A stretch of 54,829 nucleotides of DNA, the filler included, from Sluysia triapertura (taxonomy: Eukaryota), in NCBI GenBank assembly GCA_046118255.1. It is 4 parts of 4 records of this genome, joined end to end, with 100 filler letters (N's around TTAATTAATTAA, not from the genome) between each part and the next. Parts side by side here need not be neighbours in the genome. Positions count along the whole stretch, not along the records: positions 43,380 to 54,829 come from JBJNIA010184601.1; 3 more parts are not named here. One strand, given 5' to 3'. How positions within the stretch are numbered: the stretch's first letter is position 1; each line of letters begins with the position of its first letter. The notes beneath the pieces are model-generated. The model had not been told where the DNA came from. It worked only from the letters and a program-made list of their open reading frames with translations, and ran no database searches. The translations under genes and the position numbers were made by a program. Below are positions 3,601-54,829 of the stretch, in pieces.

Positions 3601-4625
3601 TAAACAATCGGTGCTGAGATCTGAATACCGACTCGTATATCTTCATTTCTTAGCAATCCCGGATCTGGCATACCAAATTTAAAAAATTCAAATTCAAATA
3701 TTTTCGATTTTATTTCTGCAGGAAATACTCGATAGTGATAGAGCGACCCAGTTGGACTCGTGTCGCAAATATAAAAATCCGATACACTACCAGCCAGTTG
3801 CATATTACCGTCTTTAGTAGCCGAGTTTAGAAGCATATTGTGACACGTTAGTTGCAGCAAATTCGTCCAATCACTGGCAAGATCACCTTGACGACTGTAC
3901 TGTTTCATTGGATGATCGTATATAATTTGATTTTCACAAACAATAGTTAGTCTATTCATAGTCATTTTTAATTTTGTATTGATAATTTCTTCCATTTCTC
4001 CATCATACTTTCGATTAACATTCGGTATCACTTTGGATACATCGGTCACATTTACTAAATCAACTGGATCATAAAAGCGGGATCCCAATCCGAAAAAATC
4101 CAATAAAATCACCCATATTTCTAAGCTGATACTCAACGTTAATTCATTGAATTCCATGGTTACAAATCTATTGAAACAATTATATTCGGATTGAAAATTT
4201 CGAATCTTTTTGTCAATTAAGCACATCTGTACTGTCATTAAATTGGTTGTTTTCGTTTGACTTGTGATTGGTTGTTCCGATTTTCTGGTGGCTTTCTTTT
4301 TCAATTTTTTATCATTGATTTTTTTCTTGCGATCTGAAAAGTTAATTGCACCGAATGATGCTGACTTGGATAGCTTATTTTCGTATATTTCTCTGTCATT
4401 AAATTCCATATCTGGACACGAATTGTATTCATCGGTGCTGTTACCATGACGACGGCGTTGTCGGTTTTCAGAATCAGATGAATTTGTTTTAAAATAGATT
4501 GTTTCAGATGGCCAAGTGTTACTATAACAACCAGTAGTTGAATAAAGTAGTGGTCGATAGATTCGTCTACCCGTTCTATCTAGAACTTGATGCACCAACA
4601 GATGATTTATTATCAATTCGAAATT
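608..4625 (-). CDS. VPS13D: VPS13D-like lipid-transfer protein, internal exons (partial gene)
   Basis: Exons 4625-3537, 3468-2539 and 1113-608 have canonical AG/GT boundaries and join in frame (68-nt intron 3536-3469). Motifs resemble the VPS13D N-terminal/middle region as I recall it: WVILLDFFGLG, YIHTQRFLQEV, RILLDV..APVIVFP, ADMGHLTVTNKF, IRGVLNHNLGE, ILLIFDWL. Flanking exons not resolved. Confidence 0.85.
2268..2445 (-). mobile_element. Dispersed LTR-like repeat (begins TGTTAGG) with heat-shock element and CCAAT box
   Basis: Reverse complement aligns by eye with 30358-30550 (TGTTAGGTTRTCATCACRACCCT..., HSE, ATTGG, TA(C/T)ATA). Far end and TSD not resolved. Confidence 0.55.
2329..2353. 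promoter_or_regulatory. Perfect five-unit heat-shock element
   Basis: gTTCt cGAAa aTTCt aGAAg cTTCt = alternating nGAAn pentamers; CCAAT at 2309-2313. Confidence 0.6.
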
Positions 4626-10599: not shown

Positions 10600-13300
10600 T
10601 AATCTTTTGTTATTTGAGGGATGCATTTGTAAAGGTTTAAAAATTTTAGTTTTATTTTATGTATTTACAAAAAAAATTGTAAAAATTAAAAATACTATAA
10701 AAATTATTATTCAAGTTATATTACAATTAAAATTATTACTAAACTGCTTTAAAAAATAATTCAAAAGGAACTTATTGAAATAAAATTGTTTAGTTAAATT
10801 AAAATTTAAAAGGATGTCTTTATGTGCATATAAAGACAAACATAAATAAAAAACACAAGAAATTATGATTTGCCATTTTGTATTACAAAGTTGATAAAGC
10901 TTATCACAAAAATCATCATCAATATTATTAGGTCCGTCATCATCAATCCATTAGGAATTTTCGTATTCCAGCAATTTTACAATTCATCCTTCAAGTTATT
11001 GTGTAAATCCCACCCATTCGATTAGAGGGATAACACTTACCAAGCATCAGCGGTACAGTCTATCAAGTCCAATTCGAACAATATTTCTGGAGACCGATTT
11101 ACGATTTTATTAATTAAATTAGTAAGTTCGTTACATATAGTTTGAATACTCATTTTTTACTTAAAATCTACACGTAAAATATTAAATTTTACGGTTGCTC
11201 TTTAAGGCCAATCACAAAATCAATTTAAAATATAAATTCTCTGATCTTTAGTTGGCCATTAAGGTCAATTATAAAATCATTATAACAAGGTAGAGTCTCT
11301 CGGTTAGACCTTTATTAAAGTTCAATTTTTATCGTTATTATAAATTTATTATTTATAAATTTTTGTGCTTATCGTTGATAATTGTTTTTTGAATTTTTAT
11401 AAACTAATAATATTTTTATTTTTTAAATTTTCTTTTGTTGTATAATAAAATTTAAATTGTGTTAAATATTGTTTTTTTATAATTTTAATATCGAATTTGT
11501 ACCATAAGTTTGCTTTATCTTCTGTAGATTGCAGATAATTTTGAATTAAATAAACTACTATAAAGCACACTCTAGTTATAATATAAGTTTACTAATTTCT
11601 TAGAACATCTAACAATTAGTTTAATTAGATGTAGTAAAGAGTGAAAGATAAAATAGTAATACATTTCTATACGAATATTGTTAACTTTATTTTTTCACAT
11701 AAACTTAATTATCCCACACGCCAGCGTTAGTCGTAATTATTTTTAAATCATTTAGCATAAGATGATTTTTTGCCCATTATTTTTAAGTTAAGGCAAAGGT
11801 TATTTTTTATATGATTAATCTTAATATTGATGCATAAAATTAAAGTTATTATCATGTGGATGAATGAAGTTAAAGCAAACGATATGACCATGTTAGTGAA
11901 TAAAGTCAGAGCTAAAGATATCACCATGTTAACTAATAAAGTTAATGCTAAAGTTATTATCATGTTAGTTAATAAAGTTAAAGTTACATTTATAATCATT
12001 TTGATAAATAAAGTAAAAGTTAAAGATATCGCCATCTTTAAGAATACAGTTTGCTGGGAGTTTTCTTAATAAAAGAGCATAACTTACAGCAAAATAATTT
12101 ATTATTATGAGTCCGTTTACAGTATACAACTTACTAATGGCGTACCTGTAAAAATTACGCAAAAGCAGTTCTAAAAAATCATTTGAATAAAAATACTCTT
12201 CGCCTTAACTTAAACAATAATGGACAAAATCGTCGTTTATATCAACTGATACTAAATAGGTTAAAAATAAGCAAGACCAACGCTGGCTTGTGTAATATTT
12301 GAGCTAATGTAAAAATCAAATTAAGAATAGAATACAAACGTGTCGTTTTTTAATATCTTCAACTTTTAATCAAATCTTAATTTATTGACCGTAATATGAA
12401 GAATATAAGTTCCACTTATGTTACAATATTCACGTAAAAAGAATTATAATAAAATAAGACTTAAAAGGTTTCAGTTTTATTATAAAACAAATATAATTAA
12501 TATAAAACTACGGTAAATTTATAAAATTCGGAAAAACAATTATTAATAGAGACAAAACTTTATAAATAATAAATTTTAATAATGATAAAAGTTGAAATAT
12601 AATAAAGGTCCAGCCGTTATAATGATTTTGTGATTGGCCTTAAGGACCAACCGTGAAAAACATTATTTTACGTTTAGATTTTAACTCAATGTGAGTTTAC
12701 AACTATGTGAAACAAACTTATGAATTAATCAATAATATTTTTAATTGGCCTCTAACTCTATTGTTCAAGTTTTTTATTTGATGGATTTGAGCTGCTAATA
12801 TTTGGAGAGTGCTATCCCTCTAATCGAATGTGCGGGATTATACACTATAACTCAGAAGATGAATTGATGGTGTGCAGCCGGATAATATCGATGATAAAGT
12901 TTTCGTGATGACTTCTTTTTCTTTGTGATATCAAAATGACAAGTTATAATTTTCTTATGATACCAAAATGGCAAATTTAGATTTTGTTCAGCTTTCTTTG
13001 TGTGATTAATTGATGGGTTCTTTATTTTTGTACGTCTTTGTATATACATAAAGACATCTTTTAAAATTTAATTTAGTCAAACAAATTTCTTTCTGGAAAT
13101 TTCTTTTGAGTTATTTTTTAAAGTAATTTACTAGTAATTTTAATTTTAATATAATTAGAATAATAATTTTTTAAATAATAATAATTTAAATAATTTTTAT
13201 AATATTTATAATTTTTACAATTTTTTGAAAATACATGAAAAATAAAACTAAAATTTTTTACAACTTTACAAGTTGAACGAGTTTATGTGAACAAATGCAA
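10600..13300. repeat. Large diverged inverted repeat (arms ~10600-11820 and ~12175-13300)
   Basis: Collinear inverted anchors: exact 18-mer 11015-11032/12813-12830, exact 21-mer 11202-11222/12623-12643, plus looser matches at ~10630/13250, ~10870/12970, ~11715/12285 and ~11785/12205. Confidence 0.85.
11841..12050. repeat. 36-bp tandem repeat, ~5.5 diverged units, open on both strands
   Basis: Units start at 11841, 11877, 11913, 11949, 11985 and 12021; the minus frame reads M(I/V)I(S/T)LALTLxxN repeats. Confidence 0.85.
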
Positions 13301-19804: not shown

Positions 19805-22475
19805 TGAAATAAAATAATAAAAATAAAAATAACACAAAACGCATATATTGTTTACATATATTTCTTTTAGTTTTTTAATTCTTCTTATCTTTCTATCTTT
19901 TCTTAACGGACTTCTTTAAAATATAAACTCATATATCTTTTAACACTAGTTCTTTTTCTTGAATATAATTTATTTTATGTCAAATTTGTGAATGTCTTGT
20001 CTATTCATGAATTTTGCGATTTTTGCTTAAATCTTATTAAATAAGTAAGTTTCTTGAAGTTTCTGATTCTGTGAATTTTTTAATGACTTTAGGAATCTTT
20101 AAACTATTGTATAATCTTAGAGTAGTTAACTTGAAGTTGTCAACTTTGAAATCTGTGTTGCGAATTGTTTGTTGAAATAAAATAAAATATCATAGAATGA
20201 GAAAAAGGAAGAATAATAATAAAATGAGAAAAGAGAAATTGTAGGAAAGATATGGTGACGTTAAAAGTGTTAGAAAAAATTCCATTTAAATTATTATCAT
20301 GATTAAATTTAAATTACAATTTTAATGATTTTTTGATGTAATAAAAGTTGAAATATTATGAAATGTGGTTTTAGTGTGATGTGTTGAATTTAAAATTTTA
20401 AGTGATAAAGTTGGCCACCACACTTTCAATTTATATGGTCAATTAAAAAAGATCTGTAAAATTGGCCCAAAAATATTTAATCATTCGGTGGTTTAAAAAT
20501 CAAACAGTTCTTCTAGTCGTGAGAAAAGATATATTACTTTAATAACAAATTCGGTTATGTAAATAACTTAATTTAATGTGTAATGTTTTGTAATGTAAAT
20601 AATTTAATTTAATTTATTATATAAATTAGTGTAAATAAAAAGTTTCAGAAAATTCAATAATTTTTAATTTTATAAATCTAAGTGGTTTTAATTAAAAGAT
20701 TAATTAAATCAGTTCTTAGAAAATCTTTATCAAAAATTATTTATAAAATTTAATCATAGAAAATTATTTTATCTTATTTATCACATAAATATTTATTGTC
20801 AATCTTTAATAAAATATTTTTTCGGCATCAAATACTTAGAAATCCAAATTGTTTATGTTTTGTTGGCGGCATAAAAAAGAAAATAAAAGTTATATAAAAA
20901 CATTAAGTTCACACTATAATAACATTACGTTCTCTGGTTATCGACTTCGTGAAAAGCTTTAACGAATAGTATCAGCGCAGTGTTACTAAGTCCGATTCTT
21001 CGAAAAATCAATTGGAACCTTTTTATTGAACAATATTTCTGGAAACAATTTCATATTCGCCAATCCATGAAAACCTAAGATGGTTTTTGTTAAGTTCAGC
21101 CCTAATCATTAGCTTTAAAATCGACATAAAATTTATTTGATCATATCCAAGCATTCGCCTGGATTAAAATCTTTTTTTAAAAATCTTTGAAGTTATTGAA
21201 TCAGTAGAAATCCTATATCATTTTATTATTATTTTTTATTATAACTGATTTAAATTGTGTAAATTAACTTATTATTTTAATAATAAATATTTGGTTTTTA
21301 GTTCGTTATATTTATTAATATCAATTAAAAGGAACTTTAATATAAGTAAATTAGAACATATAATTTTTAATAATGTCGGTGTAATTTTTAAAGTTTAATC
21401 TTGTTCATTAAAATCTGGAAATTGCTGTAAGAGTAAGGACGTTTTCGAAGGTTATTGTCATTTAGATCCTGTGAATACAAATCGTAAATCACAGGCGAAC
21501 CCGTTTCTATTATCATAATTGTTGGTGATAAAAATTAGAACAGTTATAATATAATATAAAGATTTTCATTAGCATTAATAAAAAGGTTTGAATATTTTAG
21601 ACTTAAAGTCTATTCACTTTAAAAGTTACTGATTACGACGTTTAAAAATTTCACTAAAATTTTTGTAACATTTTCCGTAGTAAATTTTGGTCTAATTATA
21701 CGAAAAAAATAACGTCTAGTAATTCTGATAAATATTAATTGATTTGATTATATTTATCCTGGTAATTTCGGCAAATGTTATTTCGTTATTGTTTCAAAAT
21801 ACAAACTTTGTAAGTTCGAAAGATAATTGTGTGAAAATAATAGTCTTTTGTTAACCAAAATAATTTAAGATATAACTTGTGTTTTTAACTCGTTATCTAA
21901 AAATAATCGTACAATAATATTTCTAAAATTCGTTAACTGAAGAATACAAGAAATAAATATTGCCACTCTTAACACAAATATTTTATATTGTTCTTTAGAA
22001 AATATAATTTTTGTTAAACAACAAAATCCTAAATAGTTTCTTTTTGATGTTAATTTTGTTTGTATCTACGAACTGATTTTATTTATTGCTTAACAATGCA
22101 GATGCTAAAAACTGTTCCGAGAATAATAAAAAATAATTTCTCGAAAATTTAATTTATAAGAAAAAAAAGTAATCGCACTAACGTTTTTAAACATTTATGG
22201 ATTTAATATTGAAAATTTATATTTAATATGAAATGCAAACATATCCAAAAAAAGTATCAAAATTTGTATTTAAATAAATATAAAATTTTATATGCATATT
22301 CTTTGTTGATAAATAAAACTTGATATTTCACTTTTTTTATATTCGCTTTAATAACCAAAATAAATTTTATTGATTATTACATATATAAGTAAATTCTTTG
22401 TTTAATTCAGTCAATAAAGTGCACTTAAAAACGAACGATTTTTAATTAACATATTATTTATTCTCGCCAAACTTA

Positions 22476-23088
22476 ATGGGTATGGTAAAATCTAAGAGCA
22501 GACGAAAAAAGAACAATACTCTTCGACCGACTTCTGGTCCTCAAAATGTTTATGAGCAGCCAAATATGGATGATTATGATGAAGTGACAACATCGCCAAA
22601 TTTAAATAATAAAGAAAAATGTATATGTTTTTTTCCTTTTGTAGAAAATCAAGAAAATGAAATTAGTATTCATAAAAATGACACTGTTTATATATTGGAA
22701 GATCCTTTAAATGAATGGGTTAAAGTGTATAATAAAAATAGTGAAAAGTCTGGTTTTGTACCATTAAAATGTTTGGAAAGATTTACCGGAAATGTGACGG
22801 ATAAGCATTATTTTTATGATATTAATAAAATATCAGCAGAAAAAAAGCTTCAACGAGCTGGAATTAAAGCTGGAACTTTTCTTGTAAGACCTAGTTTTTC
22901 AAGTAATATTTTAACTATATTTGTGTTATTTACTTCAGGACCAAATTGTTATGCTTTAAGTGTTAGAGAAAACTCAAATAACTCATGGTGTATAAGACAC
23001 TACTTAATTATTAATGAAAATAACAAGTATAAATTGAATAATGGTGTCTCTTTTAATAGTTTGGAAGAGCTTATAGTAAAGTTGAAAA
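22476..23088 (+). CDS. Src-family tyrosine kinase-like protein, N-terminal exons (SH4-SH3-SH2); kinase exons not seen
   Basis: MGxxxSK myristoylation motif plus basic patch; SH3 (ENEISIHKND..WVKV..SGFVP); SH2 (AEKKL...GTFLVRPS...YALSVR...IRHYLI...FNSLEELI). 36-nt intron 22903-22938; donor GTTAGT at 23089. Confidence 0.88.
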
Positions 23089-24224
23089 GTTAGTTCGGTA
23101 TTATAATTGATGATAATATTAAAATTTGTATTATTATTAATACAGTTATTTTCTAATTAATTAATTTTTAAAAATTCTTTTCTTGTTTCTTGTAAGTTTT
23201 CGTATTATTAATTATTATTATTATTAATTAATTATTATTATTAATTAATTAGCACAATTAATAAAAAATAGCATAGAAAAGCTGGAACGTTTCCTTTCCA
23301 TCGAAATAATTCGATTATTTTATTTTTATAAGTATAATTTTAAAAGGAAATAAAATTACACCTTATAATTAAAGTTTGATAGAATAATTTTGGAGTTGTG
23401 AACACATCATGCGTAAATGCTAAAGGATATATGAAAGTGATCCCAAGTAGGACCTATTATTGAAGAAGTAGTGCTTTGAGGACTCATTATTTATAGCGAT
23501 GAATGGAGGGCTATGAGAACGTAATAGTTACATAATACTGTATTATAGAATTAAAATTTGGAGTGCAACTTTTGATTCAAGTACCAAACTGTAGATTTTT
23601 AGTACATGAGAGTGTATATAGTATGTTTGAGTGTCCATTAATGCATCTAGAAAGTACAATGTTTAATCAAATAAAATTGACATTACCTAAATTAAACAGA
23701 TCATTTAAAGATCTACATGAAAATATTGAAGTTACACAGATTACTGTTTAACGTAATGAATGTAGCCTCATTCCTTGGAAAGTTTACATCTCACAAAAGA
23801 ATAAATCTTATCCATACGTCGAAACGACTAATAATATCGAGCAACTTATTTTTTACATACCATAATAATTTTAATAACCTTGTCTCTCTTCACAATTATA
23901 ATGTGCATCTATTCACTAAAAACACACTAAATAACAATTTACATAAATAATTACACAGATTTATCACTACGAGATTACTTCAATGTTAGTTAATTTCAAA
24001 CAATTACGACCTAATCGTGAATAGTAAGAATCTTAAAACTTTTAAGAGGAAACACAAGTCAACAATTATTTGTACATTCAAACCACGCACATAACTCTTT
24101 TTCTTAGGTTCTTATGGCCTTCACATATTAAATATTGGAATTCAAAGATAAATTGTTTGAGGAAATCATCCTGCTTTTTGCAAACAATTATCATCAGAAT
24201 ACCAGTCTGAATTCCTACTATTAT

Positions 24225-27000: not shown

Positions 27001-27117
27001 TGTTGGGGTAAAAGGCCTATAAAGTGCCAAGTAGTATAACTGAATATATTGAAAATGAAATTGTTAGACGGGGCTGATAGCTCAGTGGTAGAGCAGTCGG
27101 ACTGCGCAGACGATGGT
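27001..27117 (+). mobile_element. tRNA-containing LTR-like element, best-preserved 5' part, cut by contig end
   Basis: Starts TGTTGGGGTAA like the copies at 37284-37391 and 51071-51214; contains GGGCTGA-TAGCTCAGTGGTAGAGC (box A, D-arm). Confidence 0.85.
27071..27117 (+). tRNA. tRNA-Ala-like sequence (element-borne, truncated by the gap; probably not a canonical tRNA gene)
   Basis: D-arm GCTC-AGTGGTA-GAGC. Using the 3' half from the 51071 copy, the acceptor stem GGGCTGA/TCAGTCC-A has G3:U70 and A73. Anticodon arm is irregular. Confidence 0.55.
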
Positions 27118-27302: not shown

Positions 27303-28596
27303 TTTATTGACATTATAGTAGTTTATTAATGTTGATAATTATGGTCGTCATGTATACTTATTCCGTTTTATCACCTAGTTTATAGAAAAAATATTGATAA
27401 ATAAATTAATACATTAAAGCAGTTATTGATATTATTATTATTATTGTTAGTGTTAGTGTTAGTTTTAGTTTTAGTATTTTCGGTCTTTCTAAAACTCGGC
27501 ATGTACTTCAATTCAATTACATTTGAAGTTCATTTTATATATTAATCAATTTTATCATGTGTAATTTGTTAATGGGAGGTTGACATTTGTATTAAAAAAG
27601 GCAAAGTTGGTTGATAATTTACAAATGTAAGGAAATGTTTTGTTCATAAAAGTATGCGTCTATATTGTCTATGGTCAATTGAGCGGTGGGTGAGAATCAA
27701 TGAATTTCTGGAAGGCCAGTTTGGAGAATTGTCGGAATTAAATTGTTTTTCCATCAAATTTCGTCCAAAAGGTGGAAGAAGCGGTAGTCAGTGGGGGCTG
27801 GGCTGGTTACTATGTAGGATGATTATGAAGTTTGTGCAGTTGGGGCATTTTTCTTTATTTTTTGCATCATTTTGTCCAGCTGGTTGCAATATATTTCTGC
27901 TTGCTTGTTTATTTATCCTTGACCAAGCACTGCGATTATCATCAGAAGTAGCAATTCCATTCATAAATGGATAAGATTTATGACAAGAAAGCAACATTCC
28001 AAACACGTTTGTTTCTTTATTTCATTCAGTTCATGTTGAACTCATTTAATCAAAGTTTTCACTTTACCGATTTGACCTAAATGAGTTAATATTGTTTGTT
28101 TAATAATAATAATGTATAGGCACCTTTAGTTCATCATTATTGACCTTTGATTCTGGGAGAAATATAGCGAAATAATAGTAACACTATTGCCAAACGTATT
28201 ATTAATGACTTTCCGACCGTTTTGTTTTCAACAAAATTAAGTTTTAAAAAAGTTTTTAATATTTTTTCTAACTTACAATGATTTCTTTAAATAGGTGAAA
28301 TATGTAAATTTCCAACAAAAAGAAACAACAATAAAATGTTAAGCTAATGTCAAATTATAAGCTGTTAAATTTGGCATATTGTTAGCTACAAATTTCATAC
28401 TTATCAAATTGGTAGATAAATAATGCATAAAAGAAGTATGATTATATGCATTAGGAAGTTATTATTTATGTATTGTTTAAAATTTAACAAACATTTTTAT
28501 ATATTTTGTGAGTTGTTTTTTTCACTTAAAATTTTACATTTTATCTACCAATCATTAAAAACTTGTAAACCAATTAATTTATTGCCTTTTTCAAAG

Positions 28597-29211
28597 GATT
28601 TTTGCTATGAAAATGAAAGCGACACATGGTCAATATTAGAAGCAGTTACTTTATGTGTAACTGTGATAGTGTATGCACCAGAAAGTGCACGTGCACGGCA
28701 AATGATGATTATTCTTCAAGCAATTCTTCCTCTTATACTTCAAGATCTCTCGACAGCATCTGGTCATTTACAATTGCAGCATCATCATCATCATCATAGT
28801 AGTGGTAGTGGAAACTTATTGAATAGTAGTGGAGGTGGTGCTGGTATTGGTTCTGCTGGCACTGCTGGTGGTATAAGTGGTCCAAGTGGTGCTGGATTTC
28901 TTCATCATCCACTTCATCACCCACATCATCCTATACAACAAAGTCAATCTGCAGAAGTTATTCTAGGAAGTAGTGGCATGCTATTGAGTTCAGCAGGGGC
29001 TCCAGGCTCAAGTTCAGGAACAACTCCAGTCATTGGTCCAGGTAGTTTAATTCATCCTCATTCTGCTCCACCGATGGGATCAGGAATAGGTGGAGTAGGA
29101 GCCGTTGCTGAGACTCCTCTTCCGCATAGAGCTGAGACACAGGCAATACAACAGCTAGCTGTCTCTATTAAACAACTAATTTGTACATGTGACTATTTAA
29201 CAAGGTATGTT

Positions 29212-29289
<78 letters not shown>

Positions 29290-32200
29290 ATCACTGAGAT
29301 TAAATTCTAATAATTGCATTTTTCACTTTTATATTAGTCAAATTTTAAAGTACTATTTTTCTTCGTGAATTACAGAGTTTCTGATAGACCATTCGGAAGT
29401 GGTGGAACTGGTACAGGAGGTGGACGAGAAGGTAAAGCTGGTGACGAAAAATGCAGTTTTCGAAGAGGTGGAGGAGGAACTAATTATTCGCAAACTCAAA
29501 ATTCGGTAATATTAGATGAGCAAGATGAATCTCCATTTCGAATTATTGAGGAGTCGCAAACACAACAGCAACAACAGTCACAACAAATTGGAGTACAACA
29601 AGCACAAGGAGGTTTGATTGGACGATTTAGAAAGAACACTTTAGCTTCTGCAAATAACCTCATTGCAGATGAAGAGAAAATAATCGGACAACAACAAGGT
29701 GTTACAACAACAGGTGGCCGTGGTCCGAGTTCAATCTTATTAGCTCCTCATGAAGCAGTGCTGCAGGTTGCCTGTGACTTTTACACGACTTGCCATAATA
29801 GATTAGGTGAATTAGGCGAGAGACATAAAGCAGCTGTGGAATTATTGGATCAAAAATCAATTACAGTTTGTTTATTTAGTTTATATAATGAATAATAGTA
29901 AATATATTATAATATTAATGAGAGTCATAATTATTCAACGAAGTTTGTTGAGAACTTATTTAATCTTTTGCCTATTAAACGTAACTGACACATGAATGTT
30001 GATTGTGTAATCGTAAAATAAATAACTCCATTGTTAAATTTAAATTTTTAACTACAATTTTAATTATTCAGCGTTTATCAGAACTGGCTCAAATAATAAT
30101 CAAGCAAATACCGACTGATATGTTAGCTTTAAAAAGTGAAGCTTTGCAACGATTTTTTCTGGAAATTCCACCGTTTATAGATTGGAATCATGAATCACTG
30201 AAATCTTGTAAAGCCTTAGAAAATTTGATTTATCGACTTAATCGTACAATAACAAAGATTTTGAAAGATGGTTTTGGAAGAGTTAGTTTGAAACATATTG
30301 ATCATATTATAATTCACAGCGCGTTTTATGTTATTATTAAGAAATATAATAAAATATTGTTAGGTTGTCATCACAACCCTCCAAAATCATTAAATTACAT
30401 TAAAGAAATTGTTTAAAATAATTAATTTCTATAAAAGAAAATATTTCTCGAAAAAAGAAATCAAAAATTCTAGAGCATTCCAGAAATTCCATTGATTTTG
30501 ATTGGTTGATGATTAGTATATATCTGGTATCAGTTTATTTTAAAACACAATTTAATGACATTTTTAACACGGTTCTAAACTGATTACACTTGTGAGTTCT
30601 TCTGATTCATCTCTCTTTGGTAGAGATGGAGTGCTATATTTAGTATAAATTCAAGTTGTCATGTAATAAATATAACTGAAAACTGTAAACTAAATTTAAA
30701 ATTAGGAGCCACACTAAGAACTTTTTTAATTTTAAAATGTTTATCTCTGAAAAGCCTTTTGAATTATTAATTAAAAATAATTGGATTTTTAAAATAATGC
30801 ACTTAAATATTGATAAAAATTCGAATATTTTCATAAAAATATTATCATATGTCCAACAAATATGTTTTATTCCTTATGTTTTTTGGATGCTAACATAGTC
30901 TGACAGATTCTTGCCTTCTTTCTTCTTGTTTGTTTGCTAATTTCCAACTTCTACTTTGATTAAGTGTTTTTGATGCTTCTGAAAATAGTATAAAAAATTT
31001 TCGAGAGTTTTGAACATTTTAATGTTGTAAAGCAAACGAAGGGTAATTTTGTATGTTTTTATTTAATGTGTTTTTAATTTTTAATAATTTTTACAATCTT
31101 TATAAATTTATAAATGGAGTTTTTGTAAAAATTATTAATCTATTTATATTGTAAATCTAAAACAAAGATTTAATTTATAATGGTCATATTTTTAGAGATT
31201 TGTTAATTGGGACAGTCTTACAAATTTGATACAAGCTGTCTTTTTAATTGTCAAACACAACAAAAGTGTGGCTTATATGAAAGACGTTCGAGTAAGTCTA
31301 AAATTATTTGAAAATTTAATATCAAATCAAAAAATATTACATAAATAATAAATAAATATTTGCTTGTTTTATGTTATGTACTTTGTATTCGGTTAATTTT
31401 AGTAGAAGTTTGAATTTGTGCTGTATTTCTAAGTTTAATCTAAAATCCTTATGATTATCCAAGAAATATATTAATAAGTACTCTAAAAATAGATTCAATA
31501 TTTCAATATACGAATACGGTGTTCTACCAAAGTTTTTAAATGTTTTTTTGAAAAATTTCGACATAGTTTTCTTATAATTTATTTTCAAATGTAATGTCTT
31601 TAAAAAAAATCCATCTTGAAAACATTTATATGTTACCTGATACTAAATTTGTATTGTATAATAGTAAGATAATCTTGCATGACCATTGGGGATCATTTGT
31701 TCTTGGTTTTTTTTATTTTTATGAATTAGACAATTATCAATAAATAAAAATAATTCATTTTCGTTATCAGTAAAACTTATCGAAACGCACTTTGTCGCCG
31801 CTTATCGCACGTATAACATATATAACTTACAATATATTGTGTCAAGGCACTAAGTGTTGATAAATGAATAATAAAATCTGAATAACAATATATTTTGTGG
31901 TTCTTAGTGCTCAACTTTATATAAAAAACATAACATAACATAGTGTTTAAAGCATTGATATTTTACAAAACGACAACTGGCAATGATTATGCTCATTGAG
32001 GATATACGAATATTGAATAATCCGACTTCAAACCATATTTTATTTTGTAAGATAGTTTATAAAGTAAACATTTGCCATTGTGAGTGATGATAGTGCTGCA
32101 TGAATCATTGAGTTATTACTTAATTTCAAGACTAAACTACAAATTTCATTACATTGTTATATTCCATTTATATCATTGCGTTTATTAACTTTTTACTAAC

Positions 32201-36080: not shown

Positions 36081-39000
36081 GCATACAATTCTTTACTATA
36101 TTATTATATATTGTCCATTTAATGCAGACATTTTTACTTGTTGGCTAATTAAAAATTAAATTAATTTCTAGAATTCTAATTTTGTCAAATTAATTGTTAT
36201 TTTGTGCATTTCTATTTTTCAAGAATTTCAATTTTATGATAAAGAGTTTGTCTAATTCATTCTGTAACTACATAATAATCGAATAATACAACATAATCTT
36301 GCAATCTCAATCAATTTCGAATACAAATAAAATGAAAAATTCCTGGTAAACAAATATAAATATTTCTTGATAGATATCATAGAGTTTTTTTATTTTTCTG
36401 CTAATCTGTTTTACAAGTGCTCGAATGGAACTCTAGTTTTCATTGAAACGATTCAAAATATGTTGGTCGGCGCTTAATTTTAAAGTAAGTAGAAATAAGA
36501 GTTTCAACTTCTTATTTGCTGAAAATAACAATGCTTTTCCGAGATGTAACCATAATGTCTATATGAATATTGATTAACTCAAAGAATAGTGTGGACGATA
36601 ACTTAAGCTTAATTTCAATTTTACTATTATCGAAATTTATGAATGTCTCTTTCTTTAAATTAATAGAATATTCGAGTGAATATTTTAACAAAAATTTAAC
36701 TACTAAACTCTTTCTGTAATTATTATATTTGAATCTATAACTTAGTTAAGTTTGTTAGAATTTGAGTGTTTAATTTATAACTCTCTTTTGTCTTTATTTA
36801 AATGAGGGATTGTAAATAATTCGTGAAAACGTGTTTTTTACTACAGTTAAAACCCTGTAATTTATTTTTTAAATGATACCATTTGCCTATTTAAAATGGC
36901 TTTTGAAAGAGCGCTCATAATTAAGATTTGATAAGTTGATATTAAATAAATAAATAAATAAATTTATCAAAAAAGGCTATATATAATGTTACTAAAATAA
37001 GGTCTCTTAAAGGTTAACTGAAATTTTTTGAAAGTCTCAAGTGACGGGACAAAACATTTATTATTAATTTACGTAGAGTTTAGATGTTTCTTAGGAACAT
37101 TCTAACGTTTTCCAAGTAGTTAAAATAATTTCGTTTTCAATAATCTCTGTCAATATGAATGTATTATAAGAATCACTAATTTCTTTTCCATAATATATAA
37201 ATTTCTTCAATGAAAACGAAAAGTTGTGCTTTTAATCGATATTAATTTTTTGAGAATTAAGTACTTTTTAATGTTGTATTATATGTTAGACTTCGTAAAA
37301 TTGACTGATCAGGGATCGAACCCGGGACCATCGCTGCCCCGTCTAACGATTTTTTACCAAATGGCACCTTAGGTCTTTTCTTACCCCAACATATAATTGA
37401 AACTCAAATTTTTGTAAAAAGATTTTGTTATGACAAAATTGTAAGTCAAACTTTTGTAAAAAAATCAACTTATCAGTTGAATTTATGCGTGGCCACTATT
37501 TGTGATGCTATTAATCAAATGAAAATTTTGACCTTAAAGATCTTTCTTTGTACAAAAGTTTATTTTGTAAACGTGTAATAAGTAGCTCTGTACCTACTGC
37601 GATGAAAAATCTAGGCCTTTGGCTACTTTTTAAAATAATTATTTTTATTTACTAATATGACTAGTTATAATTTTTAGCAAACTATTATTAGTTAATATCT
37701 TTAACATTATTTAACATTATTTAACATTATTTAATTATTATCAATTATTATTATTTTACAGGCATATTTATAGATTATTATTCTATTGTTATCTACATTA
37801 TTATTATAATTTATAATCGTCGTCACTTAATGATGAATGAGTGAAACATATTCGTTCAGTGTTTTTTGAAAATCGAATTGGATATTGTTCGGTGCACGAA
37901 AGGGTTATTGATGACAAAAATGAATGAATCAAATGATATTCTAACTTTAACATCATCAATATTTTCACCAAAGTATTCCAATATCATCTAGAATCATTTA
38001 GAAGCATCATTTCTTGAATTACCGAACATATCTTTAACCAACTTCAAGTTCTCAACATCTTCACACCCTCTAATCATCTAGAATTCTTCAGAAATATATT
38101 TTTTAATCAAAATCGAATTAAAATTTACTATTAGTTTTATTTTTAATAAGATAAAATCAAGCTTTTTGGCTTTGGATATGTATTTTACTTTCTGACACTT
38201 ATTACTGTGGTCTGGAGGTTACTATTCACTCGTCTCTGGTGTTAGGGATTTTATTACAAAATGTATTCAAGATTCGAACTTTCTCTTTTGCTTCCTTTAT
38301 AACAACAAAAATAAACGAGTTAAAATTTATTTACAAATCTGAATAACCGAACACATAAGTTTCTGTACGTATAAAAATTGCTTTGAAATAAATTACTAAA
38401 GTACCACAACATGTAATTTTTGAATGTAATTGTTTTATTCCTTATTTTAAGTAAACGTTATTCGAATTTAATATTTATATCTTTAAATATTATTCTACTA
38501 ATAAAAAATTTATCAGAATTATCGTTAATAAAGAAAAACTTCTCTGTTTTCTTTTCCTTAAACGTATCACTTCTTCCGAATAAAGCTTTCTTAAGCTGCC
38601 GAATTTCATATCTTTTATCTTATTCGAAAATTAATTATCTTCTTTAAATCAAATATGGCTATTTCCAAATTTGCACCGCCTAGATATTATATATTATTAT
38701 ATTTTGGCTGGTAAATTGTTATTGTTTTTTAATTATTTTATAGTAATCTTCTATATATATTATTTTTTACAATTGTTTTATAGAATAATTATTTCATGCA
38801 CAATAGAGAGAGTCATTTAATCATACTTTTGTAGGTTGTTAATAATAAAATAATAGTTGTTTTATAAATAATAGAGTCAATTGTTACTGTTTTTCAATTA
38901 TTTTGAGATTATTTATTTACTATAAGAATAATTCTGCACAATTTGTATAAATAATTAAAAACAATTTTATAAACAACAGAGAATTACCTAAAATTAATAT

Positions 39001-45148: not shown

Positions 45149-45873
45149 TTGATTTTGCCAGATAATCAATTGAAGGTTTGGGATTATCACGAGATGTTGT
45201 TTTGATTATGTGGACTTTACCAAGCTCATTGCTTCGTAAAACATTATAAACTTTCATAATGGAAGGGTCGAAACGGCTAAATAATAAAATATCAAAATAA
45301 CTACAGTGTCGCAAAATTCTATATTCCGTTTAAACAAAATAAAAAATCGTGAAATTAATAGTTAAAAGCAATAGATATTATTCAAATAAAAGGCTTCGGG
45401 TTTATAATATTAAAACTGCATTAAATTAATTAAAATTTTCATATATCGAATTAAAAATTACCGATTTAGGGAGCAATGTAACGGTAAATTAAGTTTTGCT
45501 GCTACATCATAACATTTGATTGTGCCTTCCACTGATGAAGATATTGGTTTTTCACAAAATACAGCCTTTCCTGTAAAAATTAATGACACTACTAATACTA
45601 ACCATAATTTAACGATTGGATTATCAACTTTTCGTGAGAATCTGTATAAGTGCATATGATTACACCATCTAATTCGGGATCCTGTAAAATTCTGTCTAAT
45701 TCATCAGCAGTTAAAAATTTTATGTTATTAAATGTTTTTTGTAATTCTATAAGTTTTTCTTTATCTATATCAATAGCATAAGCCAAAGTTGCTCTTGCTG
45801 AATTAAGAATATTCTTCAGGTGTATTGTTCCAGCCCTTCCTATTCCAACTAAAGCTAATTTATAAAGTTTCAT
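45149..45873 (-). CDS. Gfo/Idh/MocA oxidoreductase, myo-inositol 2-dehydrogenase-like, first three exons
   Basis: Exons 45873-45603, 45570-45462 and 45276-45149. Rossmann LVGIGRAGTIH, GKAVFCEKP, LNRRFDP, IIKTTSRDNPKP. Later exons not identified. Confidence 0.9.
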
Positions 45874-46189
45874 AATTAATTACAAATGGTGGTTATGTTT
45901 CTTAAATTGAAAATAAAAGCTTATATACTCTTACTGTAACCTTGAAATTATATTTACTAATGTATTACTAATCAGCATTATTTTAAGAATAAAGTAACTT
46001 ATGTTATGAAATACTTAAGATTTAAAAATCAACAGATGATATATACATAATTTAAATTTCATCTTTAACTGCAAAATAACAAGATTTTGACTTAAAAATT
46101 TTATAATTAATTTTAAATAAATCTTCAGTTCTATTAATTTTTTAAACAAATCTTCAAGTATTTTACCTTAAATTATAGCGATTATATCA

Positions 46190-48000: not shown

Positions 48001-48618
48001 GCCTTATATAAAAATTAATTACTTGTATTGCATGGAATAAATAAATAATAAATAAAGAAATTATTTTAAATAATTAACTTGCTTTAAACAATAATTTATA
48101 TTTTAAACAATAATTAAAAATTTTGATTTTTTTAAATAAATTTTTTAATTTTTTAATTTTATAATTTTTACTTTAATTTTCTTAAATAAATTTTTAATTT
48201 TTGATTTTATTTTTTAATAATTTTTTACTATTATTTAATTTTCTTTTTTTAATAATATTAATTTTTTATTTCTGGGATTCCATGTTAATTTAATATTTAA
48301 TAATTAATTTATATTCTAAAATAATTACATTCTGACACTAAAACAATTTATTCTGACATTACAAAACTTTATAATTTAAATTAATACAAATTATAATCCA
48401 CATTAATAATCATTAATAATATTTACAAAATTTAATAATCATTAATAGTATATCAACAATCATTAATCATTAATATTATTTACAATTTACTTCACTGTTA
48501 GGGAAAATTCGTCCCGAATCATAAAAGCATTGCTGTAAAAATATAATAAGATATAAGGATCATAATAAATCATAAAATGTAAGGATCACGTAAAAAAGTT
48601 ACTAGTTAGATGTAAGTG

Positions 48619-50519
48619 TTAGTTTGAATCGTATATGTCGATATCGGATGCGTCACTACAGGACGTTGGATCTGCTGGGCTGCTCATAGATTGATAACGA
48701 TACTTCTTGTAAGTTTTGAATGTCGTATTATGCCCAAATGGGACGTTAGTAGGTTTGGGAGAATGTTAGTAGTCTGGTACTGCTTTTATGAGTTTAGACG
48801 GTATTGTTGTCAATGATGACGACGACGATGATGATGTTAGCGCGGCATTGCGTAGCGTACTTTTTTGTTGTGACGATGTTGATAATGGCATTGACATTGA
48901 TTCTGATGGAGCCACGAAAGTATCTTTAGACTTAGAAGGCGTAGAGAAAAGTAGGGGAGGAGGAAGAGAGAAGTTCGGTATAAAAGTTAGATCTTTCTCA
49001 CGGATTAGATCCAGTAAAGACATCCACGAGCAGATCATACGAGGCGGTATCGGATATAGCAGTCTAAAAGTTAGTCTTCCCCTTAAAATAGCATTATCGG
49101 TTGTATAAAACAAAAGATTATTATTTGTAAGATTAATTAACGCTTTAAGCCAACTGAACGGTAGATTAAGATCTTTAATAATAAGACACGGGTTCAAAGA
49201 CACCGTGATCTTATCGTGCAGATGTCCTAACAGAAAGTGGCGGACATCATCAATATCTTTAGTGTCGGAGATATCTGAGTCTTTGATCTCCTGAATGTAT
49301 CTTACGAAGTTTTTGATACGTAATTGAGGTTTTATATTTATGTCGGTGTGATATTGTTTAGAATATGGGACGCAAGATATTTTTGTAATATGAGGACGGT
49401 TCAAGAAATCAAAAACGTATGAATAAGCTATGAAAACTAATCGGTCCTCATCATAAGCAGACATAGGCGGAACATGTGTAAAAGAAGTTTCGTTCTGCCA
49501 ACACGCCGTATTAGCAACATCGTCCTTATAAAGATTAGGGAAGAAGGATTGAAAGGAAGAAGGTGGCAAGGGATAAAGAAAAGCAATTGATGTGGGGCTT
49601 CTACTACTATATTACATTTTTTATAGATATTAGTGACATTCAATGAAGAAAAACTGTGGAAACTGGTTGTAAAAGGTACCCCGCTGTTTATTACGACACC
49701 TCGTGCCACAACTAAATATAAGGAGTTTATGGATTCAGGAACTTGAGAAAGGCCGTCTAGTCACACAAAAAGAGAGTTGGAAGTTAACGCGAAGATATGC
49801 GTGGCTAAATTGATATCTAATTCTGATTTAAGACTATTGGGGGTTTCAACAGAACAAGAAAAGAAGGCAGGGATGATACTTTCGTGGCAATACTTGTCCA
49901 TATATACATAAAAAGTTTTTTGTTGGTTGACTAACTTCGCTTGAATATGGCTATAAAGGAAGAAGGAAACGTAAAACCATACATGAAAATTTTAAATAAG
50001 TAAGCTATTAATTTATTATATTATTTTATTCTTAAATAATAAATATAATTAGGTAATTTTAGAACACCCTATCTTTTCTTCAAAAAAGGATTAATAGGCT
50101 ATGAGGATGTTGGCAATTGCGTCTCTTTTTCCTTATAAAAGTGTTTTAATTGACGCCTTCTTTTATTGCGTCTTTGTGATTTAGACAAGTTTTTTGGAAA
50201 ATTTGGGGGAGGTCTTACCTACCCTTTCCTACTAAAGTTTTTTCTTTTAATAATTGACGCCGGTTGATAAATATCAATTCCGGGCCCCTCGGAAGCATCC
50301 GTTATATACTTAACGGTAAAGGCATAAGAACGTGCGTTTATAGTAGATATCGCACTCAATGATGGTTGTTCCGCATAGTGGGCAAACAGGTAAATGTGAA
50401 GGCGAAGATTCAAAAAGGCTGTATAGACAGAAAAAATGGAAGCGGTGAAAACATGGAGAAGTTTTTGCAAAATACTTTGGAATGGAGCGGAGATAAACAG
50501 CGCAGGTAGAATATGACAC
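48619..50519 (-). pseudogene. Two-exon orphan gene, decayed, probably cargo of the Gypsy-like element
   Basis: Intron 50222-49951 (GTAGGT...ttccttcttcctttatag) joins FSRKG|HIQAKLVNQQKTFYVYMDKYCHE in frame. Two frameshifts and two premature stops; Ser/Pro-rich tail ending DIDIYDSN*. Confidence 0.6.
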
Positions 50520-50800
50520 TGTCTAACCGCAAAGAAAATATGTAATAAGATGATAAATGAGTATTAATAAAAATATTAAAAATCCTAAACCTAAATAAAA
50601 GTTAAATAATATTTTAGTTTGTGAATGACTCGAGATGGATGGTACACTATCACATACAGTCATTTACACGATCATTACTATTTCTAATAACAAATTTAAT
50701 ATTTATCCTTATGATTTTTATATTACACATGACCCAAGTTGAATGGGAGTACCATTACAAATGGCCAATTGTGTAATGTGTATTAAATTTTACATAAAAT

Positions 50801-53328
50801 CTAAATGAAAAAATGGGCCCTATACCTAATGAATAAGTAGAATTTTGGGATAATAAAGTTAATCATTAATGTTATTAAGGAAATTGTTATTAAAATGTAA
50901 TTAAAAGTTATGATGAAATTATTGATGGATTTCATTAGAGCTGGGAACTCAATATTATTTTTACTTATACTCATACTTATATTTGTAGCATTCGAACTCA
51001 TATTCATATTCCTGTTATAAGACATTCGTAAAATTGTTATTGATTTTTAGCGTTTTCTCTGATTTCGTATTGTTAGACTTCGTAAAATGGACTGACCGTG
51101 GATCGAACCCGGAACCTCTCGCTGCGCTATCACTGAGCTATCAGCCCCGTCTAACGATTTTATTTTATTATAGTCAATTTTACCAAATGGCACTTTAGGC
51201 CTATTACCCCAACAGTATACGAATCGTTTTCGTACTTATCAATAACTGGTACTTGCACATCATGATGTCTGATCGTTGGCCAAAATCATTCCATATTTCT
51301 TAATATCCAAAACTTGATAAACATGAGTTTATTATTCGGAATATGATATAAGCGAATAGTATCGTTAGGCAATATCATTCCGTAACGTAAACCGACAGAC
51401 AATTCATATGCAATTATTAATGTATTACTATATAATGGATTATTGATACGTACGATATTTTCTAGATAACGATAGATACCCATTGGAAATTCAATTGATG
51501 TCGATGATTGTTGAACAACAAATGACTTAGTTCTAATATTATATGTCGGTGATTATTGAAAAGTAAATAGTTTAGTCCTTATTTTATAGTATCGTATTAA
51601 AATAGTCTTTGAGTCACTTTGAGAATCATATTCTCATTCTATAGTTATCGTTACACTAATTAATTGATATTCAGCAAGATCAATGCAAGATATAAACCAG
51701 TAGAAATCTTGTTTACTTGCTCTTATTTCGGTTTCACATCAATCCATTATACAACATTTTATTTGGACAGAAAATAAATTAATCTGATCTATTAATATTC
51801 TAGCGTAAATGTCTTTTTGAGTAGATACCAAAATTATCTTAAGCGAAGTATTTCTTGAGAAGTAATTCGTGCTTGATATACAAGATAGATAGGTGCATAT
51901 TAAGATGGTTGATTTTACTTGAGTCATTTGCCAATTTCCATATATAAGTGGAACTTGATTATTTGTAGCGTATTCATAAATTGGAGGTAGAAGTATCGTC
52001 ATATCCGGTGGAGTGTAATTATTTCGATGTGGTATTGTATATGCATCGTCGTCATCATTGTAATTGTTATACGGTATTTATTTGATACAAACATAATAAT
52101 CGTTAATAATACTATAGCAAGAGCAATTCCGAACAATATTACTGATATTATTAGTATTACCAATGCTGGATTATTCCGTAGTGTTTCTAATATTGTTAAG
52201 TGTTTCCTGGTTCCTTTAAATGCAAAATGCAAATATTTTGATGAATGCCGAATTTTCACAATAATATGTCTATCCTCGATAGGTAGTATGTTTGAACATA
52301 CTGTGGCTGGATATCTCAAGTCATTATCAATATAGTTTTCGTATATGGTCCATGAACTAAAATTAAGTCTGGCAAGTTTTAAACAGGCAACTTTGGCATG
52401 AATATTTTGATTCAATATTCTAACCCTTATTTCATTATCTCTATTATAAAAGTCAAAATGTTCTATTTTAAAAGAATGCTCATGGCATGGAATTACCGTA
52501 TCTATTGTAATTAAAATCAACGGTATAAGATTTTTATTATTTGTAGGAACTCGTACTGCCCTATTAATTTGAAACAAATAAAGTATGGTCCAAAGTGTAT
52601 ACAGTACCATGAAGATTAATAACATTATAAAGAATTTATAAGAGTGTTCCATGGTATCTTTGGTAGTCGAAATTTTTGAAGTGCATATCTGTTTCTTAGC
52701 TGTATTATAATTAAGCAATGTTGTTGGTACCTCTGTTGTTTTTCTATGTTCCAATTGTTTTACGTTTTCGATAAATTTCCAAATATCTGTGTATTTCTTT
52801 TGGTATTTAGAGAAAAGGTTATTAACATGGGTATGTAACCATAATGCAAAAAATGCGAAAAACCGTTTATATGATGTGGTAATGACTTTAAATAAATACA
52901 GTAGATTTCGAATTCATGTCTTAGTTTCATTTTCTTGGAAATAAATTCGAATTTCCAGTGTTGATTGTAGATATCAGTAATCATTATCAGTAGCCATGAT
53001 TTATAGCAATATTTATATTTTTGTATTCTTCATCCGTCTCCGTTGCCATAGCGTTAGTTACTAGTGATAGAATAATCATAATTAATACATATATCCAATA
53101 AGTTAGTTTCTTAAAACAATTTCTATTGAAACCATTTCTATTCTTTATATTGGTCATTATCATTATTGTGTCTTGAGCTTCAGAGCCAATACTTGATGAG
53201 TCCGGACTTTCCTCTGATGTAACTGTTGATGGTGATCCCCATGATACATCCGACATTTGAAGTTTAGATACAACGACATCGGGTAATGGTAAATCTGGAA
53301 ATTGTAATAGTGGATTCAAATTTGGCAT
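50801..53328 (-). pseudogene. Env-position multi-transmembrane polyprotein, disrupted by frameshifts, stops and an insertion
   Basis: Contiguous same-strand ORF pieces with repeated hydrophobic segments (YWIYVLIMIILSLV; FFIMLLIFMVLYTLW; LVILIISVILFGIALAIVLL; ILITISLITLMINFII) separated by hydrophilic domains with NxS/T sequons. Confidence 0.7.
51071..51214 (-). mobile_element. tRNA-containing solo-LTR-like element with GTAT target-site duplication
   Basis: TGTT...AACA termini with GTAT on both flanks; tRNA-like 51147-51088 with box A, box B and TTTT; inserted in the membrane-protein ORF. Confidence 0.9.
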
Positions 53329-53379
53329 TTAATGTAAGGTTAGTTCATCACCGACTGTGAAACTAGTAGTTGAGGTATA

Positions 53380-53700
53380 ATCATATTTGACCCTGGTTAT
53401 AAAACCATATTTAATGTGAATGACCATATCTTTTAATTTATTAATGACATCCATACCTAATATTAATTCGTACGGGCTACTATCCCAAACGTTTACTAAA
53501 ACTTGTACATATTGTCCTACTACTTATATATAGCACAATATAGTTCCGTTGATATTTATGGGTGTTTGATTAACATTATATGTTATTGTTCTTGATCCAT
53601 TTATAAATACTAAATCCCAACTAGTCAAAAAATTTTTATGAACTACTGATATAGTACCGCCGGTATCAACAATTGAGCTAACCCATCGCCTAGGTTATCT
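53380..53700 (-). pseudogene. Retropepsin-like aspartic protease downstream of integrase
   Basis: SSIVDTGGTISVV (DTG at 53667-53659), flap-like TYNVNQTPINING, and PYELILGMDVI (ILGMD 53463-53449); one internal stop. Confidence 0.85.
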
Positions 53701-53759
53701 CTATGAAGATGTATCATAAATATTACTTGTTTATGTCGTAGTGCATGAATTGAAGGCGG

Positions 53760-54590
53760 TTTGTCTCGATCTTTAAGTCTGGATTTAATTTTCAAGTTTG
53801 ATTTTTGTACTTTCCTATTTCTCAGATTATATTCTTCTTTTGGTGCACTCTTACACCTATTGATGTGTACTACAAATTAATTTTATTAGGATCTTTAACG
53901 AACACATTTGTATCAGTAACTTTTGTTATAAAATAAGGCCCTTTAAAAGGTTTATGTAACTTAGGTGATTGACCAGGTTTAGTTATTGGATAATCTATCA
54001 ATAATTCGTCACCTATTTTAAAAGTATGTTTTTGGCTGTCCTATAGTATATTTCTTGAGAATACTTAATTTGAAGACCTGCTCGTTTCCATGCGTCATGT
54101 AATGATTCCACCATTGTAGTCACATACTCTGGAATCTCTAAGTATTGTGAAGTTGGAGGAACCCATTCTAAATCTACTGTCATATTAGAGTGTCTACCAT
54201 ACTAAATAAAATGGAGTAAAATTAGTAGATTGATGTACGGAACTTCTCTACGCAAAAAGACATGGTGGGATGTATAAATCCCAATCAGATTGTCCATCGT
54301 TTACGTAAGATTGAATCATATTTATGAGAGTCCTACTAAAACTTTCCAATAATCCGTCAGTTTGTAAATGGTAAGGTGATATATAAATTCTAAGGATGTT
54401 AAAAATCTTTGCTACAGGTTTAATCACGTCGCTAGTAAAATTAGTACCTTGATCTGTCAGTAATTTTCTAGGAGTTCCATATCCATATATTATCTTTTCT
54501 ACGAGTACCTGTGCTACTGTTTCAGCCTTCTGATTGGGCATCGGATAAGCCTCGGGCCATTTTGTCAAATAATCAGCGAATACAATTGTT
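53760..54590 (-). mobile_element. Ty3/Gypsy integrase (rve core + GPY/F module), decayed
   Basis: DYLTKWPEAYP...LLTDQGTNFTS...PYHLQTDGLLES...WD....LFA, then PKLHKPFKGPYFI and VVHINRCK; stops and frameshifts present. Confidence 0.93.
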
Positions 54591-54829
54591 TGGATTAGTG
54601 AAGGATAAGGGTTGATATAAGGATCAAAACTTAAGATAACAGAATAAGGTGAAAGTTATTAAAAAACTAAGATAAGGCATTATGATGAACTGTAATAGTA
54701 GGATAAGCATATAAAATATTTAAATCAAGATAAAATAATGAGAAATACGAAAAAATAACCCTTTACAAGGTTTTATCTGTTAAAATATTAAAGTACATTT
54801 GTTAATTAATTTAATTATAATTTGTTTAA

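Follow-up and report, generated by a model that had tools for sequence, protein, structure and literature searches.

What fills the env slot of a decayed Ty3/gypsy retrotransposon in the genome of Sluysia triapertura (GCA_046118255.1)? The question is raised by positions 53328-50801 on the minus strand of the stretch of DNA that we analysed as a whole (54,829 nucleotides in four joined parts, the last from JBJNIA010184601.1; hereafter the window), which a first-pass annotation had read as a polyprotein of serial type-I-like membrane proteins rather than a classical Env. The window is AT-rich animal DNA (17-37% GC per kb) with intron-split VPS13-like, UNC80 and SH3-SH2 exons according to Pfam, and an intronless, decayed mobile element occupies its minus strand from ~54590 down to 48620. 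We read this element as a decayed Ty3/gypsy (Metaviridae-like) retrotransposon with its env slot filled by a three-module membrane chain, in the order integrase, retropepsin, Ser-rich leader and three rounds of signal, ectodomain and transmembrane segment (TM). All the parts that the first-pass annotation had named within the chain were found on the minus strand, arranged as it described. Hydropathy in the list below is Kyte-Doolittle over 19 residues (KD-19), and model confidence is the predicted local distance difference test (pLDDT).

54248..54590, minus strand: Ty3/gypsy integrase core (rve), 5' part missing; Pfam rve E 5.6e-8
53700..54247, minus strand: integrase C-terminal region, GPY/F module and basic linker, several frame changes; tblastn
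53329..53694, minus strand: retropepsin-type aspartic protease (DTG ... ILGMD), in-frame stop at 53526; Pfam and profile
53101..53328, minus strand: Pro/Ser-rich leader, ~76 codons, predicted cytosolic
53041..53100, minus strand: signal-like stretch 1, behind a basic n-region; KD-19 1.96, 22 uncharged residues
52635..53040, minus strand: ectodomain 1 and Thr/Ser-rich stalk, ~135 codons, frame ambiguous ~53000-52790
52563..52634, minus strand: TM1; KD-19 2.37
52488..52562, minus strand: 11-codon basic loop and short signal-like stretch 2 (LIPLILITIDTVIP), same frame as TM1 and TM2
52176..52487, minus strand: ectodomain 2, 104 aa, 3 Cys, 1 sequon, beta-rich
52080..52175, minus strand: TM2, frame change just behind; KD-19 3.36, helix pLDDT >90
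51928..52077, minus strand: module-2 cytoplasmic tail, 50 aa; 7 Tyr, 7 Pro; PPxY, two YxxP, two YxN
51871..51927, minus strand: signal-like stretch 3, starting at a Met (MTQVKSTILICTYLSCISS)
51215..51870, minus strand: main part of ectodomain 3, ~219 codons, 4 Cys, 3 sequons; stops at 51741, 51636, 51555 and 51288
51071..51214, no strand assigned: secondary insertion, 144-bp TGTT...AACA repeat with tRNA-like core; 4-bp target duplication; Rfam tRNA 29.1 bits, E 0.007
50801..51066, minus strand: Asn/Ser-rich stalk (3 sequons), TM3 (50929-50846), 14-aa tail, stop at 50803

Integrase, retropepsin and a coding membrane chain

The rve integrase with its GPY/F module is akin to gypsy Pol, a feature of Ty3/gypsy (Metaviridae) elements: the core is 35-51% identical to the integrases of all 16 motif-selected gypsy loci, and the GPY/F piece matches eight of the 16 at E<0.2 (best 1e-5, tblastn). 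A predicted retropepsin directly behind this integrase is the most unusual of the well-supported features. Both the D-T/S-G motif and the distal hydrophobic-G-x-D motif of A2-type proteases are present at the right spacing, Pfam gag-asp_proteas matches at E 0.0017, and the region was the sole good match among 414 targets of a profile made from three upstream gypsy proteases (E 1e-5). Its only two PDB sequence matches are both Ddi1-like proteases, at E 1.1, and a comparison with longer proteins gave no homologue among 86 candidates. The DNA between integrase and protease (53876-53700), which lies outside the training set of our frame model, scores as coding. No protease follows the integrase in any of 16 related gypsy loci, 10 of which extend at least 1.3 kb downstream. 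We infer, rather than see, that this is a second protease of the element, because the reverse transcriptase (RT) and the usual protease site lie outside the window. As a separate observation, the loci L002 and L010 carry a protease-like region with an integrase close behind, and a Gmr1-like order is suspected there.

To assess coding, the minimal cost of stops and frame changes (break cost) was compared with that of 100 dinucleotide shuffles. The chain, 53328-50801 on the minus strand, costs 14 against 43.6 +/- 3.9 for the shuffles (lowest 34) and 40 for the opposite strand, and a host control at 48000-44200 is at chance (67 vs 71.7). From the integrase to 50803 the coding path is continuous (25 vs 67.3 +/- 4.6). 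An artefact of chance hydrophobic open reading frames (ORFs) in AT-rich DNA was ruled out by the break cost against shuffles. The path changes frame near 53000, near 52080 and beside the insertion, the last within the C-terminal part of module 3; with at least four stops, at least three frame changes and one insertion, this copy is dead. Nevertheless, TM1, the loop, signal 2, domain 2 and TM2 share one stop-free frame (51999-52913, 304 codons), and no stop separates the module-2 tail from signal 3, as an internally signalled polyprotein predicts; the layout described in the first-pass annotation is real, and its interpretation as a polyprotein finds partial support. A stop at 53331 with the leader Met directly after it suggests that the protease may end Pol and that the chain may be an ORF of its own; it is an even bet whether this is so or whether the stop reflects decay.

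Along the path, signal 1, TM1, TM2 and TM3 pass the KD-19 threshold of >= 1.6, with peaks at 53097-53041 (1.96), 52631-52575 (2.37), 52163-52107 (3.36) and 50917-50861 (2.25). Such peaks also arise off the path (one frame has 11, two of them on it), so hydrophobicity alone is not diagnostic in AT-rich DNA. The predicted ectodomains measure ~135, 104 and 265 codons and the cytosolic pieces 11, 50 and 14; modules 2 and 3 have seven sequons between them in the parts predicted to be luminal, and the main part of ectodomain 3 probably comprises two beta domains. In comparison with the rest of the chain, the module-2 tail is enriched in Pro (P 2.5e-4) and Tyr (P 0.027). Motifs of its PPxY, YxxP and YxN types bind WW and SH2 domains, and the signalling tails of poxviruses and herpesviruses offer a parallel; among 20000 shuffles, PPxY alone recurs in 12% and PPxY plus a hydrophobic-YxN in 2.3%, for motifs chosen post hoc.

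The 144-bp repeat that splits ectodomain 3 has further copies in the window, at 37284-37391 and 27001-27096. It looks like a solo long terminal repeat (LTR), a terminal-repeat retrotransposon in miniature or a miniature inverted-repeat transposable element with a Pol III-type cassette, not a plain short interspersed element. Target duplications of 4 bp (GTAT, TATA) accompany the copies, and the one at 37284 is internally shorter (108 bp).

Searches and known envelopes

The 304-aa piece encoded by the stop-free frame has no homologue among 1172 longer-protein candidates, nor at E<=0.001 among 1,835,955,588 protein representatives; the domain-3 piece has none among 229 candidates. The longer-protein searches of the 304-aa piece and of the protease region left out proteins >2000 aa, so a full Gag-Pol-membrane chain could escape them. 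Pieces of the chain matched no PDB sequence, metagenome and viral contigs held no homologue, and ESM Atlas returned no usable match for residues 60-285 of the 304-aa piece. A Pfam 7tm_1 match on the same piece (E 2e-5, under the family cut-off) was dropped, as it spans two distant TMs. Single-sequence structure models reached pLDDT 36-48, hinting at beta-sandwiches only (in that of domain 3 the last ~18 residues derive from the inserted repeat), and fold searches from these low-confidence models, BFVD included, turned up no fusogen of class I, II or III and had no match at E<=0.001. Paralogy of the domains, raised in the first-pass annotation, was not demonstrated: the best pair, one of 18 tests, has z 3.2, with five of 1000 shuffles as good. 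A full-length match to a known Env, or intact copies lacking a single frame, would have spoken against that annotation; no such match appeared, and the searches gave neither a homologue nor an intact copy. The element stretch was found in one sequencing run, with no RNA run among those listed.

The nearest contrast is a metagenomic gypsy element, L011 (3061-5466, plus strand), with an integrase 44% identical to ours, in which an F-like Env follows on from Pol in the same frame; this Env has a signal, a furin site, a hydrophobic stretch like a fusion peptide, a 505-aa ectodomain with 10 Cys, and a TM. The large pieces of the chain have no tblastn match to L011, and Pfam finds no F-type Env in the chain, although it is blind to the L011 Env too. 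Where F-type (class I) Envs have furin R-x-K/R-R and a fusion peptide, as L011 does, the six pieces scanned here hold no furin consensus, in a decayed copy with a KR-hydrophobic stretch in a disfavoured frame; R-x-x-R is seen once within the cytosolic loop of 11 codons, once at an X that lies upstream of the protease, and once across the insertion edge. Likewise, the F-type has one long Cys-bridged ectodomain and a single C-terminal TM, against three TMs and short Cys-poor ectodomains here. The first-pass annotation was right to see neither a furin-fusion peptide pair nor, by architecture, a classical Env. The class III (HSV-type) gB spans several hundred residues and has conserved disulfides. 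Its ectodomain consists of five domains (PMC13524379); our longest measures ~265 codons, and its main part contains 4 Cys. Phlebovirus-like Gn-Gc (class II) is a pair of ~420 + 500 residues, as in the single Gag-Pol-Env chain of Atlas virus (Gn 421, Gc 498, class II fold), far longer than our ectodomains (PMC9094657). The sORF2/FAST-like fusogens are ORFs of 63-107 aa with an N-myristoylation motif and a ~30-aa ectodomain, which our modules do not share (PMC11952523). By the features tested, the membrane chain is outside the F, gB, Gn-Gc and sORF2 families, and its organisation is like that of a structural polyprotein of RNA viruses set in the env slot of a gypsy element. In alpha-, flavi-, pesti- and bunyaviruses the structural polyproteins have alternating signals and stop-transfers, are cut by signal peptidase and carry Cys-rich ectodomains, and in alphaviruses the capsid is an upstream cytosolic protease; the layout is alike, with no match in sequence or fold.

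Among whole elements, errantivirus-type ones with F or gB Envs share the gypsy integrase with GPY/F and a signal/TM ORF straight behind it; our element differs in having three short Cys-poor ectodomains instead of a single long one, a protease behind the integrase and no furin site plus fusion peptide (PMC13524379). The same metazoan Ty3/gypsy survey describes Envs as F-type or gB-type, the latter lying between gag and pol in flatworm, nematode and bryozoan elements; since it found Envs by homology, it would not see a protein in the env slot that is unrelated to these (PMC13524379). The Env of Tor, a glycoprotein cleaved by furin, has a C-terminal TM (PMC4402516). In the belpaoviruses Atlas virus and Cer13, too, the envelope region joins on to Pol and is cleaved into several type-I glycoproteins; they are however Belpaoviridae, not gypsy, with no post-integrase protease in the text examined (PMC9094657). 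The giant gypsy elements of planarians, Burro, carry regulators of the RING-type, BIR and BCL2 kinds as cargo, and their F-like Env is located between gag and pol; they share long polyproteins, accessory regulators and decayed copies in AT-rich genomes, but their domains were not detected in our element (PMC6431247). The rotifer Juno/Vesta ORF3s include small TM proteins and DEDDy exonucleases, and a TM or sequons alone do not make an env (PMC5408684); MDG1-group sORF2 gives retrotransposon spread without Env (PMC11952523). Our element may share with these an LTR-element cargo of TM proteins other than Env and of DEDD exonucleases, and Env-free spread; they are single ORFs of 63-230 aa, against a signalled three-module chain of ~790 codons (PMC5408684, PMC11952523). 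No account of a protease after the integrase, or of a signal-peptidase-cut chain, in gypsy elements was found in a literature search that left out Repbase, most subscription papers and supplements, so that the supplements of PMC13524379 could still list such elements.

Downstream reading frames and setting

Two further ORFs follow the chain, the RING-H2-like finger lying between it and the exonuclease-like ORF.

50310..50522, minus strand: RING-H2-like finger, degraded; Pfam zf-RING_2 E 5.4e-5
48619..49991, minus strand: broken ORF of ~450 codons, candidate DEDDh-type exonuclease with a Ser-rich tail behind it; break cost 5 vs 17.2 +/- 2.5

Both probably belong to the same gypsy element, the finger as cargo. 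For the longer ORF, ESM features point to arenavirus nucleoprotein (0.90), DEDDh_C (0.87) and RNase_T (0.86); with just 117 shared features the DEDDh-type identity is a lead only, and Pfam, PHROG and PDB lend it no support. RNA-degrading, anti-silencing cargo is a possible role. These two ORFs, the post-integrase retropepsin, the tRNA-bearing 144-bp insertion and the Tyr/Pro tail of module 2 all go beyond the first-pass annotation.

Beyond the second ORF, at ~48520-48470 (minus strand), a TTCGGGACGAA stretch precedes a run rich in purines, after which comes TG. Judged by eye, there may be a purine-tract/TG boundary near 48480, resembling the place where the internal part of a gypsy element gives way to its 3' LTR. 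No long direct repeat (paired LTRs) was found in the window, from which the 5' end of the element is absent. Elsewhere in the window are VPS13-like exons (2473-4625, minus strand), UNC80 exons (28420-30416, plus strand) and an intronless-looking SH3-SH2 exon of a Src-like gene that begins with MG (22446-23093, plus strand). A short ORF at 45598-45879 (minus strand) presumably resembles the N-terminus of a Gfo/Idh/MocA oxidoreductase, judged by eye, and a tandem array of four copies with a 36-bp period (11841-12051) overlaps a hydrophobic repeat ORF (11748-12065, minus strand).

Competing readings and their meaning

We favour, at a probability of roughly 0.45, that the env slot is occupied by a non-classical envelope, or by an apparatus for spread between cells, which signal peptidase cuts. 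The slot directly behind the integrase is where L011 has its Env and Atlas virus its Gn-Gc (PMC9094657), and a role in spread is also backed by the non-Env membrane proteins that already serve it in retrotransposons (sORF2, PMC11952523). The unbroken coding path, the lack of stops from TM1 to TM2 and from the tail to signal 3, the retropepsin, the seven sequons and the motif-bearing tail count in its favour as well. The chain, released from Pol by the protease or made by separate initiation, would be threaded through the membrane of the endoplasmic reticulum by its alternating signals and stop-transfers, and signal peptidase would free three type-I glycoproteins whose beta-sandwich ectodomains are small and poor in Cys. 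The post-integrase protease, remaining in the cytosol, would either end Pol or sever the chain from it. The ectodomains may attach to neighbouring cells, and the PPxY, YxxP and YxN motifs of the module-2 tail may recruit Nedd4-type ligases and SH2 adaptors, leading to budding, actin protrusions or cell-to-cell passage; one of the three proteins might perhaps also fuse membranes.

Several points weigh against this reading. The evidence is a single broken, 5'-truncated copy: the integrase is cut at ~54590, the window ends at 54829, and neither gag, PR, RT nor RNase H is present upstream of the integrase in the window. The folds are poor. The internal signals quoted in the first-pass annotation are present and plausible as predictions, but weak: signal 2, with its core LIPLILITI, peaks at a 9-mer KD of 3.0 but falls short of the thresholds set for 11-mers and 19-mers, and the STILICTYLSCISS stretch of signal 3, preceded by Met-Thr-Gln-Val-Lys within a 19-residue uncharged run, reaches 2.09, under one ectodomain 9-mer (2.14). 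Finally, two frames compete for domain 1 at ~53000-52790. The favoured one runs for 89 codons without a stop, against a maximum of 57 among 296 off-frame runs elsewhere, and the other has two in-frame stops; stop statistics favour the former at a rough 76:1 and an order-2 frame model at ~0.55-0.87, while models of order 0 and order 1 either do not decide or favour the alternative.

The rival that survives best, if still rather unlikely, keeps the polyprotein and makes its products host-modulating receptor mimics, with Ig/FN3-like ectodomains and a signalling tail but no entry role, and with the RING and exonuclease-like ORFs as a block of anti-defence cargo. The ectodomains are sized like single Ig/FN3 domains, the top structural rows for domain 3a, from a low-confidence model, are Ig-like, FN3 and cytokine-receptor sandwiches, and the Tyr/Pro-motif tail, the RING finger (E 5e-5) and the DEDDh lead would all fit. 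Planarian Burro, moreover, carries regulators of apoptosis and ubiquitin (PMC6431247), and rotifer ORF3s once named env turned out to be enzymes (PMC5408684). The exact env slot argues otherwise, as do the low confidence of the folds and the absence of similarity to host receptors in Pfam, PDB-sequence or protein-representative searches. The layout also recalls viral envelope precursors.

That the chain is not one polyprotein, but two or three tandem genes (module 3 from Met 51927, the leader from 53328) or captured fragments of host membrane proteins that look fused through decay, we regard as quite improbable. Module 3 does open with a textbook Met-basic-hydrophobic N-terminus, stop and ATG adjoin at 53331, and the joins at ~53000 and ~52080 need frame changes; yet no stop or non-coding gap parts the tail from signal 3 or TM1 from TM2, the frame model, partly trained on these very segments, sees no spacer, and neither introns nor a host homologue were found. 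Least probable is a small class I-like fusogen hidden in the alternative frame of module 1, where a dibasic KR, FFAFFALWL (18 uncharged residues, 9-mer KD 2.39) and a helix-like stretch form the upstream part of the 304-codon ORF, might be taken for a cleavage site with its fusion peptide, and meet no objection from the order-0 and order-1 models, since it needs both in-frame stops against the stop-free competitor, has an order-2 posterior of 0.2-0.45 and an alpha-moment z of 0.8, and offers neither a furin consensus nor room for a second heptad before TM1.

A bolder form of the envelope reading would make this a fourth kind of gypsy envelope: three beta-sandwich glycoproteins unrelated to F, gB and Gn-Gc, freed from Pol by a dedicated post-integrase retropepsin and by signal peptidase, that would link attachment to actin/ubiquitin-ligase recruitment and to a new mechanism of fusion. 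A RING ligase and an exonuclease of arenavirus-like type would travel with them. In this full form we hold it to be unlikely. If true, the post-integrase protease and three-protein membrane chain would extend the known ways in which retroelements leave the cell, and, if one product fuses membranes, it would be a fusogen candidate outside classes I-III. On the duller reading, this would be a retroelement with surface receptor mimics, which are better known from large DNA viruses. The arrangement of integrase, retropepsin and serial signal-TM modules provides a signature that can be searched for.
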